Shown: in pieces, positions 9,779-14,513 of the stretch
Numbering within the stretch: position 1 is the first letter of the stretch
How the letters are laid out: every line of letters begins with the position of its first letter
Sequence record: OZ035728.1
Strand: one strand, 5' to 3'
Length of the DNA: 64,000 nucleotides
Source of the DNA: Phapecoctavirus 536P1
Position numbers and translations under genes: made by a program
Notes under the pieces: generated by a model
Seen by the model: the letters and a program-made list of their open reading frames with translations, nothing else
The model's database searches: none
Told to the model about the DNA's origin: nothing

Positions 9779-10357
9779 CTACCGAGTCCACTCCTTACGT
9801 TGTTCAATATGTTCAAGCATATCGTTATACAATGTTTTAAGATGTGGAACAACTCTTTGATCTTCTGTTTCAAAAAACTTTGTAAGCTGTTCTGCTTTAG
9901 CTTTCAACCAACAAAGATGTGCTTGGAGTTCCGTATCGAAACGACCGAGTGTTATGATACGTCCTCCGATTTTAATATGGGCCTTATACTTCTTACGATC
10001 CTTCTCATAATTACATCCTACCATTTGACCTGACTTCTTTCTGTAGGCTAAAAACTTATTAAGATTTCCAGAAATCATTAAGCAAGTATCAGGGGAGTAG
10101 ACTCCCCCTCCCATAAGATCCTTATCGAGTTCCGAGTTTTCCCAGTCGTCCCAAGTTTCCAACCAAGAGTAGAAGTTGGAAAACAGCTTCCACTCTTCAC
10201 AAACCGTCACTCCATGATAAACGACATCTCTTGCCTGTTGGCAAGATGAATAACACCTTCCCAACATTGCCATCCATTTCATATAAGCAGGGTGCATAAC
10301 CCCTTCAGGAGATCTTGCAGTAATGCTCCCATCAAAAACACCGTGACCATAAACCAT
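9779..10357 (-). CDS. HNH-family homing endonuclease-like protein with AP2-like DNA-binding domain
   Basis: 192 aa; YMKWMAMLGRCYSS...YHGVTVCEEWKLFSNF pattern typical of phage HNH_3 endonucleases; C-terminal KAHIKIGGRIITLGRFDTELQA resembles AP2; lies directly downstream of DNA polymerase. Confidence 0.5.
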   Translation of the reverse strand: MVYGHGVFDGSITARSPEGVMHPAYMKWMAMLGRCYSSCQQARDVVYHGVTVCEEWKLFSNFYSWLETWDDWENSELDKDLMGGGVYSPDTCLMISGNLNKFLAYRKKSGQMVGCNYEKDRKKYKAHIKIGGRIITLGRFDTELQAHLCWLKAKAEQLTKFFETEDQRVVPHLKTLYNDMLEHIEQRKEWTR

Positions 10358-10386: not shown

Positions 10387-13300
10387 CTAATGGCAACTGG
10401 CCCAGGAATTCCCTACATCATATCCAGCAGTAAGCTGAACATTAAGATTGTAAAATTCTCCAGCCTTAGTAACAGCTAAGGCAGCAAGTTCACCTGCCCG
10501 ACTATAGGCTGTAAACCATCCACCTTTGGGAGATTCATGAATGTTAGCCCAAATTTGCCCTGTCTCTTTTTCCTTATTATGCTTCCATTCTTCGACTTTA
10601 GCAAGGCATTCTTTATCAATTTTCTTTTGTTCTTCAGGATCGTCTACTTTCTTCCAACCTAATGATTCAGGTGAAAACCATTTAAATTCTACAAGGTTAC
10701 GAGAAACTTCAAGCTGGGCTTCATCGTGATATGCAATCATTTGTTGCACGAAATCTTTATTCTTCCAGTCATCTTTAAAGAAGTCAACACTTAGTCCTTC
10801 TTCTTCGATCATGTCGTCATAAATAACCATTGCACGTTTAGCACAGATAACCCCACCACTTTGGAACAGAGAGTTAAGAATCGCGTGAGCAGAACGAGTA
10901 GGAACCTTACGACCGTCAATACCCAAAACATATTGTTTACCAGTCTTAACCCAAAAGTCGTTTAAACGTTCTTTAAGACGCGCCAATGGGAATGCAGCTT
11001 CCCAGAAAGCATCAAACACCAATTGACCTGTAAACTTATCGCTACCAATTGTTTTAGCAACCTTGTCGGCTTGTGCACCATAGGTAATACCATACTTAAC
11101 AGATTTAGCAGGACTACGTTCAAATTTACGTCCAATAGTTTCAGTGATACGTTTTGCCATCATTGTGTGAACATCGTTAGGTTTCTCTAACAACAGAGCG
11201 TTACAATACTCGTGTGGCTCCGGCTCGTACCGCCAACAGTTTCCTGTGATGGTAATGCAGTCTTTCTGACGCATGACCCACGTACCAAGTTCTGTTTGTG
11301 GACACCAAACATCCTCTACACCCCACTCTTCAATAGTCAAACTTTGAACAGGAATGTGAGAGCGGTTAGTCAATGTTGCCACTTTTACTTTCTGCTCTTT
11401 TGTATTGAAAGCTACAGAGATATTGCCTCCATGCACCAGGTACGAGGCAGTTAAAGCTGCTTCAAAAAGTTCACCTGGGTTCTGCGCCCAACGCCAAACA
11501 GGTTTTTGTTTATGTTCATGCCAGTAACCATCTGCAATCAAGAAACCTTCCAAGAAAGCTACACGCTCGGCATGAGACATATTAACTACACGCTCTACCC
11601 ACGGAACATCCCATTTACCTTGTTGAACAGAAGTTAAACTATTTACCTGATCTTGTTCCATGTTAAATGGAGCATTACAAATAATATTATCTCCTGTGCA
11701 AAGCTCGGCAGTTGTTCTGACTTTAGGCACATAAGTATTCCCTTTACTACGGGTATTAACATACCAACGGTGATCTGCTGTTGCACGGTAAGTGTGTGAT
11801 TTCCCTTTAATCTCAAACGTCTTACTATTTTTATAGAAGACCTTACCTTTTACTTTAGTCCATTCTTTCATACCTGTTTCAGCATTGTACCCTAAAATCT
11901 CATCCCCTTCCTTCAGGTCGTGATATCCTACCCAACCTTTACGAGTCAAAGCTTGAGCATCCATCGGCACACAGTAATGCGACTCAATCTTTGCTTCCAA
12001 AGAGTCGAAGTCATAACCGATCTGGAAGTATTTAGGAACTTCTACACCAAACAAGTTACGCATCTCCCATCCAAACAAAGATGTGACACGAGGAATATTA
12101 GCTACAGATCTATGCTTCATACGAGAGGTTGCAGCATCACATGTAGCGGCTGGGGTAGGAATACGCCCATCAGCCCTTACTGCGGCTAAGAAACCTTTAT
12201 CGTATTCTTGATCTTCTTCATCTTCTTCCCAATCAGCACCGCCACCTAAAATAGAGTTCCTACGATGCTTATACGTTAAGTATTCTACAATCTGTGTAGC
12301 ATAAGGAAACTTCTCACCCAAAGCTTGCAGGTTAGGACAAATTTCTTTTTCCTGACCTTTGGTAAAACACGGGTTAGTCAATACTTTAAGACCGCGACCT
12401 TTACCTTTTGCTATACGCTCTTGAATCTTCCTTTCCAAGGTTTCCGGTGTGCACTCCAGATGATCACAACGATCCTGACAAAAATTAGAAGATAGAGTTT
12501 GCTCAACGTAAGCTCGAATACCTTTCTGAAGTTCTTCCTCGCTCTTTTTAATTTTGGTGCCAGATTTAAGCGTCAAGTCTTTATCTTTATATTCAGACGG
12601 TACCCAACCTAATCCTACAAGCCAGTTTTTAATATGGGTTGTATCGTTCAATGTTGCAGGGATATTAGGATCACATAGAGGCTCATCTGCTGCAACTGGC
12701 AGTTTCCACTCTTTCCCCAACATAACTAACCACCAATCGCCATCCCTCTCTTCCAAATGACCATCATGTTTCTTAGCAAAATTGATCATATGGTTAGTTG
12801 GCTCTAAGTTCTTTTTAATTTGCAACTTAGGTGGAATAAAAGCTTTAAGATAACCTTTTGTTGCTGGTTTAGGTGGCAAAATAGGCTCAACGAGTAAACG
12901 AAGACGCTCCATTTCTGCATCCAAAAAAGCAAGGTTCTCTTCTGCTTGTTTCATGTTAAAAGCAAACCCACGGTGTTCCTGGCGTGTAATAATGTCTGCT
13001 ACACGTTGTTCAAGTTCAAATGGACCTTCCCATTTATCATAATCACCCCATTCTTCCATAAGGTAATTATATACGCTCGTATTGGCTTTGTTGTCATAGA
13101 TACAGTAATAAAGCATATCCGCAGCAAAAGTCTTAAATCGATCTTCTTCTGGAATCTCTTTACGGAAATCTATTTTTACATCACCACCTGCTTTTCGAGA
13201 AAGTGCTGCCAAGCTATGTCCTGATTTGCCCTCAATCTTTCGATCTGGGTTTAACACTTTACTCAAAATCAAGGAGTCAATAAGTTTTACCTTATTTTTG

Positions 13301-13719
13301 CCCCACGTATTATATTTAACACTGTAATCTAATCCATAAAACAGTTTTGTAGCCAACCAGTCGTAGTTGATACCGTTGTGAGCCACAGCCATTTCAACCA
13401 GATATTCAGGCTTGTCTTTAAAATAACCTTCATGATTAATAAAATCTGGGAAATCTTTTAGTTGAAAATGTGTGTAATCTTGCGCCACATACTCTTTAAG
13501 AACATATGTGTATTTACCATCTGACTCTTCATAAGGACGCCCATCAAAGATGTATTTAGGGCCATCGTGGAAAGCTACTATTTCTCCTGTTTCATGGTTC
13601 TCTAAGACAATACAGTGCATTTGAAATGTGTCTTTGAGACGATAAGGACTAGCTAAATAATCAATAGTGTCATTATTCAACAATCCGTTTGCTTCAATAT
13701 CCCATGTAAACTTACTCAC
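10387..13719 (-). CDS. DNA polymerase, family A, with 3'-5' exonuclease domain, interrupted by an in-frame intein
   Basis: 1110 aa; exo motif WDIEANGL; pol motif A DFDSLEAKIESHY, motif B RSPAKSVKYGITYG, motif C YHDEAQLEV; GTG start with SD AGGAGG. Confidence 0.85.
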   Translation of the reverse strand: MSKFTWDIEANGLLNNDTIDYLASPYRLKDTFQMHCIVLENHETGEIVAFHDGPKYIFDGRPYEESDGKYTYVLKEYVAQDYTHFQLKDFPDFINHEGYFKDKPEYLVEMAVAHNGINYDWLATKLFYGLDYSVKYNTWGKNKVKLIDSLILSKVLNPDRKIEGKSGHSLAALSRKAGGDVKIDFRKEIPEEDRFKTFAADMLYYCIYDNKANTSVYNYLMEEWGDYDKWEGPFELEQRVADIITRQEHRGFAFNMKQAEENLAFLDAEMERLRLLVEPILPPKPATKGYLKAFIPPKLQIKKNLEPTNHMINFAKKHDGHLEERDGDWWLVMLGKEWKLPVAADEPLCDPNIPATLNDTTHIKNWLVGLGWVPSEYKDKDLTLKSGTKIKKSEEELQKGIRAYVEQTLSSNFCQDRCDHLECTPETLERKIQERIAKGKGRGLKVLTNPCFTKGQEKEICPNLQALGEKFPYATQIVEYLTYKHRRNSILGGGADWEEDEEDQEYDKGFLAAVRADGRIPTPAATCDAATSRMKHRSVANIPRVTSLFGWEMRNLFGVEVPKYFQIGYDFDSLEAKIESHYCVPMDAQALTRKGWVGYHDLKEGDEILGYNAETGMKEWTKVKGKVFYKNSKTFEIKGKSHTYRATADHRWYVNTRSKGNTYVPKVRTTAELCTGDNIICNAPFNMEQDQVNSLTSVQQGKWDVPWVERVVNMSHAERVAFLEGFLIADGYWHEHKQKPVWRWAQNPGELFEAALTASYLVHGGNISVAFNTKEQKVKVATLTNRSHIPVQSLTIEEWGVEDVWCPQTELGTWVMRQKDCITITGNCWRYEPEPHEYCNALLLEKPNDVHTMMAKRITETIGRKFERSPAKSVKYGITYGAQADKVAKTIGSDKFTGQLVFDAFWEAAFPLARLKERLNDFWVKTGKQYVLGIDGRKVPTRSAHAILNSLFQSGGVICAKRAMVIYDDMIEEEGLSVDFFKDDWKNKDFVQQMIAYHDEAQLEVSRNLVEFKWFSPESLGWKKVDDPEEQKKIDKECLAKVEEWKHNKEKETGQIWANIHESPKGGWFTAYSRAGELAALAVTKAGEFYNLNVQLTAGYDVGNSWASCH
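11239..11973 (-). mobile_element. intein with degenerate LAGLIDADG homing-endonuclease block inside DNA polymerase (residues about 583-827)
   Basis: 245-aa insertion directly after pol motif A; begins with Cys, ends ...ITITGN followed by Cys; internal block ERVAFLEGFLIADGY resembles LAGLIDADG; extein without insert about 865 aa. Confidence 0.6.
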
Positions 13720-14513
13720 TATTCCTCCTTTCTAATGTTCTCCAGAACCCACTGAAGTTCTTTTAAACTTAAACTTCTTACTCCCGCAGTTTTACTAGCT
13801 TCAGCTTTAAGTAACGGGTAAGCCTCAATGATACGCGTTTTAAGATCAGAAGTCAAGGCTTTTAAAAAATAGGTGGATGCTTCAGATAAAGAATCTTCTT
13901 CTGATAACACTTTACCTGCACTTGCTCCCGCTCTCCTAACGGCTATATCGTAGTCTTTACTGTTACCTAATACGAATAGTCGATTCTCTCCTAAAACAAC
14001 GGGAGAACGCTTCTCATTGCGTTTAATCCATATCTGGAATACACAAGGAACATCCCAAGGTTCTCCATGAAGAATAAAAGATCCTTTTGGACATTCTTCT
14101 TCGTAAAGAAGATGCATGTGGGGATTTAGTTTGTGTGCAAAAAAGATTTTTTGAAATGTGCGAGGCAAGATAAAACAAATACCACCTTCGTTATCCAACA
14201 TTTCAGCACAATGGTTAAAGAACTTAATGGCAAGACTAGCATTTTTTCCAAATGGAGGATTACCGACAAAAGCAGTTACACTACCAACAGACTCAACAGA
14301 TTGAGCTAAAAAATCTGCCTCAATACAATCTTCAAACTTAGGGTCAATATCAAAAGAAGTTATGTTTTTAAAACAAGAAGAGAAAGCTCCTTCTCCCGCA
14401 GATGGTTCTACGTAGTTAGCTTCCTCTCCAAAAATTTCTTTGATCTTATCACATAAGAACCCCGCATAAGCGGGGTTAGTGTAATATTGATCAAGTGTGT
14501 TCAACTTGCTCAA
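13719..14513 (-). CDS. DNA N6-adenine (or N4-cytosine) methyltransferase
   Basis: 264 aa; AdoMet motif EPSAGEGAF and catalytic VGNPPFG; TTG start with SD AAGGAGG. Confidence 0.7.
   Translation of the reverse strand: MSKLNTLDQYYTNPAYAGFLCDKIKEIFGEEANYVEPSAGEGAFSSCFKNITSFDIDPKFEDCIEADFLAQSVESVGSVTAFVGNPPFGKNASLAIKFFNHCAEMLDNEGGICFILPRTFQKIFFAHKLNPHMHLLYEEECPKGSFILHGEPWDVPCVFQIWIKRNEKRSPVVLGENRLFVLGNSKDYDIAVRRAGASAGKVLSEEDSLSEASTYFLKALTSDLKTRIIEAYPLLKAEASKTAGVRSLSLKELQWVLENIRKEE

Follow-up and report, generated by a model that had tools for sequence, protein, structure and literature searches.

The polymerase gene and its insert

The DNA analysed here is a 64,000-nucleotide stretch (the window) from Phapecoctavirus 536P1 (sequence record OZ035728.1), and the element of interest is a 735-bp insert in its family-A DNA polymerase gene that appears to encode an intein. 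The gene, like all of its features described below, lies on the minus strand; it occupies positions 10387-13719, starts with GTG and encodes a precursor of 1110 amino acids (aa; ~127.6 kDa). The insert (11239-11973) corresponds to precursor residues 583-827 and would form an intein of 245 aa and 28.0 kDa, extending from Cys1 to Asn245. It is bounded by ...DFDSLEAKIESHY and CWRYEP... in the polymerase, opens with CVPMDAQ directly behind GYDFDSLEAKIESHY, includes ERVAFLEGFLIADGY and closes with ITITGN, which is followed by Cys. On its N-terminal side is the N-extein (residues 1-582; 11974-13719), which ends in ...AKIESHY and is identical in protein sequence to residues 1-582 of the polymerase of phage phAPEC8. 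On the other side, the C-extein (residues 828-1110 and the stop codon; 10387-11238) begins with a cysteine, Cys+1 (11236-11238), that is the polymerase's own and is also found in intein-free alleles. A preliminary description of this DNA had placed an excess of about 245 aa at 11239-11973, starting with Cys and ending in ITITGN before a further Cys. The coordinates proved correct to the base, the excess is exactly 245 aa, and the translation of residues 583-827 agrees.

The C-extein holds a Pfam DNA_pol_A match that is above threshold (2e-11), and the intein-free polymerase sequence aligns with T7 DNA polymerase (E 1e-22). In this alignment D570 of polymerase motif A (DFDSLEAK; 11989-12012) stands opposite T7 D475, which we take to be the catalytic aspartate of motif A. 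Judged by its sequence, in which both the motif A aspartate and the Pol A palm/fingers region are found, the host protein is a family-A DNA polymerase, and presumably the replicative polymerase of the phage. The insertion point, Y582|C, falls opposite T7 F487|M488, where T7 has no gap or extra segment. The intein starts 12 residues past D570, which bears out its earlier placement directly after motif A. Over the polymerase region the window is 97-99% identical in nucleotides to phAPEC8-like E. coli myoviruses (genus Phapecoctavirus, subfamily Stephanstirmvirinae).

The insert is absent from close relatives. The polymerase of phAPEC8 (NC_020079) has 865 aa, reads ...AKIESHY|CWRYEP... and is without exactly these 735 bp; its empty-site DNA is …GAATCACACTAC|TGTTGGCGGTAC…. 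When the two exteins of the window are joined, they match the phAPEC8 polymerase at 865/865 residues, and the 43 nucleotide differences are all synonymous. The same exact 735 bp are missing from 7 further Phapecoctavirus alleles. In a nucleotide search, 33 records matched the full query, and many more covered 78% of it, as two pieces. Only 2 of 22 IMG/VR polymerases have the segment at the motif A site, the 20 more distant ones being without it, and polymerase relatives with Val at the +1 position are insert-free. Alignment with intein-free family-A polymerases had been proposed as a check in the preliminary description. Because the segment is absent from near-identical polymerases (phAPEC8 and the 7 further alleles) and from distant ones, including T7, it is an insertion and not a polymerase subdomain; the latter is ruled out by the near-identical insert-free polymerases and by the T7 alignment across the site.

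Two side observations concern the gene itself. A 264-aa open reading frame (ORF) upstream (13719-14513, minus strand), annotated as a DNA N6-adenine methyltransferase in relatives, ends on the first base of the polymerase GTG start (position 13719), suggesting translational coupling. In the GenBank record of phage vB_EcoM-Ro121c4YLVW (L028; MH051333), the coding sequence given for the polymerase with its intein begins 99 nt further downstream than elsewhere, even though the sequences are collinear; this is probably an inconsistency in start-codon annotation.

Anatomy of the insert

Conservation of residues was counted over the 187 full-length family domains that could be aligned. The N-terminal part of the HINT splicing domain comprises intein residues 1-102 (11668-11973) and contains blocks A and B; it was delimited from the secondary structure of the model and from the span, residues 5-101, over which the profile matched solved inteins. 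Block B reads TADHRW (11764-11781), with T65 at position B:7, H68 at B:10 and W70 at B:12. The C-terminal HINT part, residues 213-245 (11239-11337), was delimited from the model and the family alignment and contains blocks F and G: DVWCPQTELGTWVMRQKDCITITGN. Within it, Cys224 (11302-11304) occupies block F position 4 (F:4), the position of the initiating nucleophile in class-3 inteins, and block G, TITGN (11239-11253), supplies T243 (G:5), G244 (G:6) and N245 (G:7).

Between the two HINT parts lies an inserted endonuclease-like domain, residues 103-212 (11338-11667), which was recognised in the structure model. In the model it forms one helix-strand-strand-helix-strand-strand unit (H134-148, E149-154, E157-164, H168-180, E185-189, E197-201). 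Its LAGLIDADG helix, HAERVAFLEGFLIADG (11527-11574), contains the motif AFLEGFLIADG and has D148 and G149 at its end. Q164, after strand 2, aligns with the Gln of the I-DmoI sequence ITQK, and a basic residue follows strand 4 in 149/187 domains. Modelled alone, the domain reaches a mean predicted local distance difference test score (pLDDT) of 87.5. Among the top 17 fold matches of this isolated domain, 16 are LAGLIDADG proteins, including I-CeuI (the top match), I-DmoI, bI3 maturase, I-AniI, PI-SceI, I-MsoI and I-CreI, with probabilities of 0.84-1.0 and TMq of ~0.55, at E-values of only 0.03-0.3 for this small query. Relatives of 312-341 aa (L010, L024, P0013, P0034) have two LAGLIDADG units, the second of which aligns with the unit in the window. 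The LAGLIDADG-like block of the preliminary description is upheld in its motif helix and its fold, and revised in that there is a single unit and not the usual two.

Evidence for an intein

The window insert has the residues expected for protein splicing, namely Cys1, T65, H68, Asn245 and Cys+1. Across the family, Cys1, His B:10 and the terminal Asn G:7 are each present in 187/187 domains and Thr B:7 in 186/187. Directly behind the domain there is in every case a nucleophile (Ser in 107 domains, Thr in 49 and Cys in 31). The 187 domains occupy ~117 distinct flank contexts; their hosts include family-A polymerases with the insert at motif B, a PF19846 protein (FDVYP|SAYANGW), metallophosphoesterases and FabA-like dehydratases. 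Since protein splicing needs a downstream nucleophile, Ser, Thr or Cys at +1 whatever the host protein is the pattern expected of an intein.

A single-sequence search of the PDB with the intein gave weak matches only, and a single-sequence homology search found relatives at E-values of 1e-27 to 1e-19, far stronger than chance would give. Profiles of relatives were required because direct scans of the intein against Pfam, NCBIfam and PHROGs were below threshold or empty. A 23-member family profile matched the solved inteins Spl DnaX (4.8e-7), AceL NrdHF (7.9e-6) and NrdJ-1 (8.5e-6). An AlphaFold2 model of the intein, built on an alignment of relatives, has a pLDDT of 92.3 and a predicted template modelling score of 0.89. 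Its best Foldseek matches in the PDB are endonuclease-bearing inteins, headed by TliVMA (4.8e-9) and followed by PI-SceI, PhoVMA and PI-PfuI; after these come mini-inteins, Hedgehog and bacterial-intein-like (BIL) domains, and the best 50 of the 438 matches are all intein, Hedgehog or BIL structures. Furthermore, 12 residues separate the insert from the catalytic aspartate of a presumably replicative polymerase, and the 34 carrier records seem to stem from propagated phage isolates, so that the insert would have to be removed for the enzyme to work; from phage viability and active-site position we infer that it is spliced out.

Several results weigh against reading the insert as a splicing and homing element. 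The Pfam model Intein_splicing (PF14890) scored 17.5 bits against a cut-off of 35.8 (E 0.004) and LAGLIDADG_3 12.8 bits against 22.5 (E 0.15), both below threshold, and NCBIfam and PHROGs gave no match to the insert. In all, LAGLIDADG_3 scores range from 12.8 to 14.6 bits, and 6 of 21 family members match at E<=1. The usual penultimate His is replaced by Gly. No second LAGLIDADG unit (blocks C and E) was found in the window chain, and the domain is half the usual size. As functional LAGLIDADG enzymes are assembled from two units (PMC3267165), a working nuclease would need two of these inteins to pair. Dyad symmetry was looked for at the insertion site, since a homodimeric enzyme might favour such targets, and the best score, 5-6/11, did not exceed the gene-wide background mean of 5.8. 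Finally, the intein might have been spread by ordinary recombination between co-infecting phages, with no active endonuclease.

The scores below the cut-offs show that the clade of the insert is divergent from curated intein models. Of the block and hidden Markov model scan envisaged in the preliminary description, the first half succeeded, with blocks A (Cys1), B (T65-x-x-H68), F and G (Asn245) all found, and the second did not reach threshold with curated models. Nevertheless, the blocks and Cys+1 are conserved across the family and the predicted fold matches inteins, in keeping with the protein-splicing arrangement described earlier. We put the probability at roughly 85% that the insert is a genuine intein, that is, a HINT splicing domain with an inserted endonuclease-like domain, residing in the polymerase of a phAPEC8-like E. 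coli phage.

Splicing chemistry and class

The family carries the Trp-Cys-Thr (WCT) triad of class-3 inteins, at positions defined in PMC7891396 and PMC5050341: W70 (B:12) is conserved in 184/187 domains, C224 (F:4) in 187/187 and T243 (G:5) in 185/187. The distance from Cys F:4 to Asn G:7 is 21 residues, the same spacing as in the Msm and Mle DnaB class-3 inteins (PMC5222942). Class 3 was defined by the triad together with the lack of an N-terminal nucleophile (PMC2807308). By this published definition the intein would formally be class 1 carrying the class-3 triad, as Cys1 is invariant. Tori et al. (2010) list Ser1 or Cys1 in only 3 of 37 WCT inteins and leave their mechanism open (PMC2807308).

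A class 3 route is a tentative alternative to the canonical one. Here, Cys224 would attack first and form a branched thioester at block F before transfer to Cys+1, with Cys1 kept as a back-up nucleophile or for redox control. The complete triad and the Cys-to-Asn spacing are consistent with this, and the class-3 structures 6zgq, 6rix and 6bs8 are among the fold matches of the model. Against it stands, besides the invariant Cys1, the Cys+1 of the window intein, which is almost never found in class-3 inteins (PMC5222942, PMC2807308). The family profile is also no nearer to class 3 (AceL NrdHF, 7.9e-6) than to class 1 (Spl DnaX, 4.8e-7; NrdJ-1, 8.5e-6), and a profile of blocks F and G matched no solved intein among PDB sequences.

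The other unusual feature is the penultimate residue, G:6, which is Gly in 186/187 domains (G244 in the window). A penultimate His usually assists Asn cyclisation and is common, not obligatory. In the mycobacteriophage Bethlehem gp51 intein, changing Gly to His at G:6 led to accumulation of precursor (Kelley et al. 2016, PMC5050341), and this functional precedent indicates that Gly at G:6 is compatible with splicing. The layout of the splicing element is accordingly as first described in Cys1, TxxH, Asn245 and Cys+1, and departs from expectation at the penultimate position.

Horizontal transfer

Intein DNA was found in 34 phage records, in which its identity to the window is at least 98.5% in Phapecoctavirus, 91.7-96.7% in Justusliebigvirus and 77.5% in Klebsiella phage KP13-16. 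Between the window and the Justusliebigvirus UAB_1 (L040, a Salmonella phage), nucleotide identity is 96.7% in the intein and 75.0% in the exteins; between the window and PaulScherrer, the corresponding values are 91.6% and 75.2%. The relation is reversed when PaulScherrer and UAB_1, both Justusliebigvirus, are compared with each other (intein 94.8%, exteins 98.7%). Alleles thus either have or lack precisely these 735 bp, and the insert has passed between phage genera. All of the 19.5 synonymous differences between the window and UAB_1 inteins fall in codons 1-102, with none in codons 103-245, suggesting that the intein itself is mosaic, or recombinant between lineages.

Carriers and empty alleles are interleaved in a neighbour-joining tree of Phapecoctavirus exteins. 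For example, PD06 (L005) carries the intein and a 99.3% identical polymerase (L006) is empty, and the carrier Ro121c4 differs from the empty ESCO37 at 3 N-extein positions. Close to the junction (within 60 nt), synonymous differences were overrepresented compared with the remainder of the gene in 4 of 8 carriers (p = 4e-4 for the window, 2e-7 for ESCO5, 5e-7 for Ro121c4 and 0.025 for 10C3) and in 0 of 8 empty alleles. These tracts look like co-conversion tracts of varying length. As far as sequence comparison can tell, the data support recent and repeated horizontal transfer of the intein. The homing-element traffic suggested in the preliminary description is backed by the higher identity of intein than extein across genera, by the interleaved alleles and by the junction tracts.

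A second element that some phages have and others lack lies directly downstream of the polymerase gene. This 192-aa ORF (9779-10357, minus strand) matches PHROG 953 ‘HNH endonuclease’ (E 2e-68) and probably encodes a free-standing homing endonuclease. The genomes of iGC_PHA_EC001, UP17 and SF1-1 contain it and those of phAPEC8 and ESCO5 do not, a distribution independent of the intein. Linkage of the two is ruled out by the HNH gene without intein in UP17 and SF1-1 and by the intein without HNH gene in ESCO5.

Proposed mechanism and alternatives

In the proposed mechanism, the 127.6-kDa precursor would be translated and the intein would fold within it. Either Cys1, following the canonical class 1 route, or Cys224 would attack the N-terminal splice junction; the N-extein would then pass to Cys+1, and Asn245 would cyclise. 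The products would be an active polymerase of 99.7 kDa with the native ...ESHY-CWRY... junction and a free intein of 28 kDa. During co-infection the free intein might then cut intein-less polymerase alleles, and repair of the break would copy the intein in, dragging short flanking tracts along. With one LAGLIDADG unit, cutting would require dimerisation. The initiating nucleophile, the dimerisation and the DNA cleavage are the parts of this scheme that we infer.

Somewhat doubtful, though a real competitor for the last steps, is the view that the intein is competent in splicing while its endonuclease domain is a remnant that does not cut, one half of a LAGLIDADG domain that ancestrally had two units. 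The element would then move only by homologous recombination between co-infecting phages, and would persist since its imprecise loss would kill the polymerase. The single unit, corresponding to the second one of the 312-341-aa relatives, fits this view, as do the two-unit make-up of functional LAGLIDADG enzymes (PMC3267165), a target without dyad symmetry above background, the mini-intein derivatives in the family (P0005, P0008, P0009) and the heavy recombination within the polymerase gene of these phages. It is harder to reconcile with the diversity of the family, in which 127/187 aligned domains measure 230-270 aa in a list skewed in favour of the query profile; the architecture with one unit is frequent and not a lone decay product. 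Catalytic-type residues are also retained, with D/E in 182, the following Gly in 181 and the Gln in 181 of the 187 domains. Between the window and PaulScherrer inteins, the ratio of nonsynonymous to synonymous substitution rates is 0.028 overall and 0.035 in the endonuclease domain, which supports selection acting on that domain. Moreover, the polymerases between which the intein moved share only 75% nucleotide identity, and conversion-like tracts are centred on the junction, so that break-initiated repair, as in the proposed homing cycle, fits better than random crossover.

That the segment does not splice at all, being either a lineage-specific domain retained in the mature polymerase or a cleavage-only BIL domain, is highly improbable in spite of the low scores with all curated intein models and the missing penultimate His, because a polymerase with identical exteins works without the segment, the segment sits 12 residues from the catalytic aspartate, it shows Cys1, TxxH, a terminal Asn and a nucleophile at +1 on a HINT fold, and copies of the module, invariably followed by Ser, Thr or Cys, are found in a wide range of unrelated proteins. 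A BIL domain is ruled out by the +1 nucleophile of the window intein, which BIL domains lack (PMC7664689).

The intein family and its sublineages

The family has the signature CVPxD..ALT..GW ... T..H.W ... DVWCPxTE.GTWVMRQ...ITITGN. An exhaustive profile search of 1.84 billion representatives gave 14,869 matches at E<=1e-3 and 1,042 at E<=1e-30. The nearest relatives of the window intein (44-52% identity; P0021-P0024, P0110, P0142 and others, from metagenomic fragments of PolA) all reside in family-A polymerases, and most of them occupy the motif B site (...AKTFIYA|TLYGAG...). In three further, divergent PolA proteins (P0073, P0106, P0115) the insert sits at the same motif A site as in the window, but with Thr at +1. 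This distribution suggests a PolA-specific intein sublineage that switched sites.

Other members of the family illustrate its variability. In two IMG/VR loci (L010:3001-6534 and L024:3001-6474), polymerases 43-46% identical to that of the window have an empty motif A site. Their motif B site (SAK.VKYG|C...VVTITGN|CSYNAQPP) is occupied by inteins of the same family, of 338 and 341 aa, respectively; that of L024 has two LAGLIDADG motifs, and the second motif of L010 is degenerate. Six proteins (P0046, P0047, P0048, P0049, P0065, P0066) contain at least two inteins of the family, at different sites. In two pairs with near-identical hosts (P0005 and P0002, P0009 and P0013), a mini-intein (142-163 aa) and an endonuclease-bearing intein (245-328 aa) occupy the same site; these pairs look like snapshots of endonuclease-domain loss.

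No description of the clade was found in the literature searched. An origin of class-3 inteins in phages, from a two-nucleophile state, has been proposed before. It is possible, though speculative, that the clade with Cys1, WCT triad and Gly represents this two-nucleophile state ancestral to class 3 (or a lineage using both routes), and that it holds the first intein endonuclease that is obligately homodimeric. This presupposes that the combination reflects real biology and not a coincidence of conserved residues.

Novelty and significance

As a discovery the intein is ordinary, since the same element is already annotated in PaulScherrer. The BASEL paper annotated inteins by comparative genomics and gives two for this phage (PMC8594841). 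A literature search on single-motif LAGLIDADG inteins, PolA inteins, and inteins in Stephanstirmvirinae, phAPEC8 or phi92 returned nothing beyond the BASEL annotation. It likewise yielded no report of Cys1 with a class-3 triad, of the invariant penultimate Gly or of a single LAGLIDADG unit in this intein, nor of any intein whose nuclease needs pairing of inteins. A 2024 paper states that no inteins were reported in coliphages (PMC11162368). In the records checked for 12 of the 34 carriers, the gene is called ‘DNA polymerase I’ or ‘hypothetical protein’, and the features under the match show that all carriers except SD2 and PaulScherrer are likewise named without an intein. For annotation, this means that the mature enzyme would have 865 aa and not 1110, provided that the intein is spliced out.

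The remaining interest lies in the uncharacterised clade signature (Cys1, WCT triad and penultimate Gly) and in the single LAGLIDADG unit. Because natural carrier and empty partners (e.g., ESCO5 and phAPEC8) exist among easily grown E. coli phages, two questions are directly testable: whether an intein with Cys1 and a class-3 triad uses one or both nucleophiles, and whether a one-unit LAGLIDADG domain inside an intein is able to drive homing. In addition, the insert provides a convenient marker for recombination among coliphages that are candidates for therapy.

Comparison with known systems

Like the window intein, the class 1 inteins PI-SceI, TliVMA, PhoVMA and PI-PfuI have a LAGLIDADG-fold domain between the N- and C-terminal HINT parts, and share Cys1, TxxH, the terminal Asn and a +1 nucleophile with it. 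They are longer (360-540 aa), contain two LAGLIDADG units (blocks C and E) and in many cases have an additional region for DNA recognition, whereas the window intein has one unit in 245 aa, Gly for the penultimate His and Cys for Asp at F:4. The class 3 inteins (mycobacteriophage Bethlehem DnaB, Msm and Mch DnaB1, AceL NrdHF) share Trp B:12, Cys F:4, Thr G:5, the Cys-to-Asn spacing and an association with phages. In contrast to the window family, which always has Cys1, and to its window member with Cys+1, they lack a nucleophile at the N-terminus, and their +1 residue is nearly always Ser or Thr; neither the family profile nor the block F-G profile detected a specific affinity to the monophyletic class-3 clade. 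The Bethlehem gp51 (recombination directionality factor, RDF) intein is also a phage intein with Gly at G:6, but resides in an unrelated host protein, is treated as class 1 and has no WCT triad reported (PMC5050341).

For the endonuclease-like unit, the homodimeric, single-motif enzymes I-CreI, I-CeuI and I-MsoI are the closest parallel in organisation. They share with it one LAGLIDADG helix that ends in an acidic residue and Gly, the subsequent beta-beta-alpha-beta-beta arrangement and a Gln after strand 2. These enzymes are encoded in introns as free-standing proteins of ~160-210 aa, and their targets are pseudo-palindromic, whereas the window unit measures ~95-110 aa, is embedded in an intein and has a target whose dyad symmetry is not above background.

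Among known elements, the direct counterpart is the intein of PaulScherrer (BASEL Bas60, MZ501100; Maffei et al. 2021, PMC8594841). It has the same insertion point (…IESHY|C…TITGN|CWRY…) and the same length (735 nt, 245 aa), and is 97.1% identical to the window intein in amino acids and 91.6% in nucleotides. Its host polymerase belongs to another genus, Justusliebigvirus, with exteins that are 80% identical in amino acids and 75% in nucleotides to those of the window. MZ501100 names the gene product ‘intein-containing DNA polymerase precursor’ and marks a mat_peptide of 735 nt, labelled ‘intein’, at this very position; the same product name is used in phage SD2 (PQ821640).

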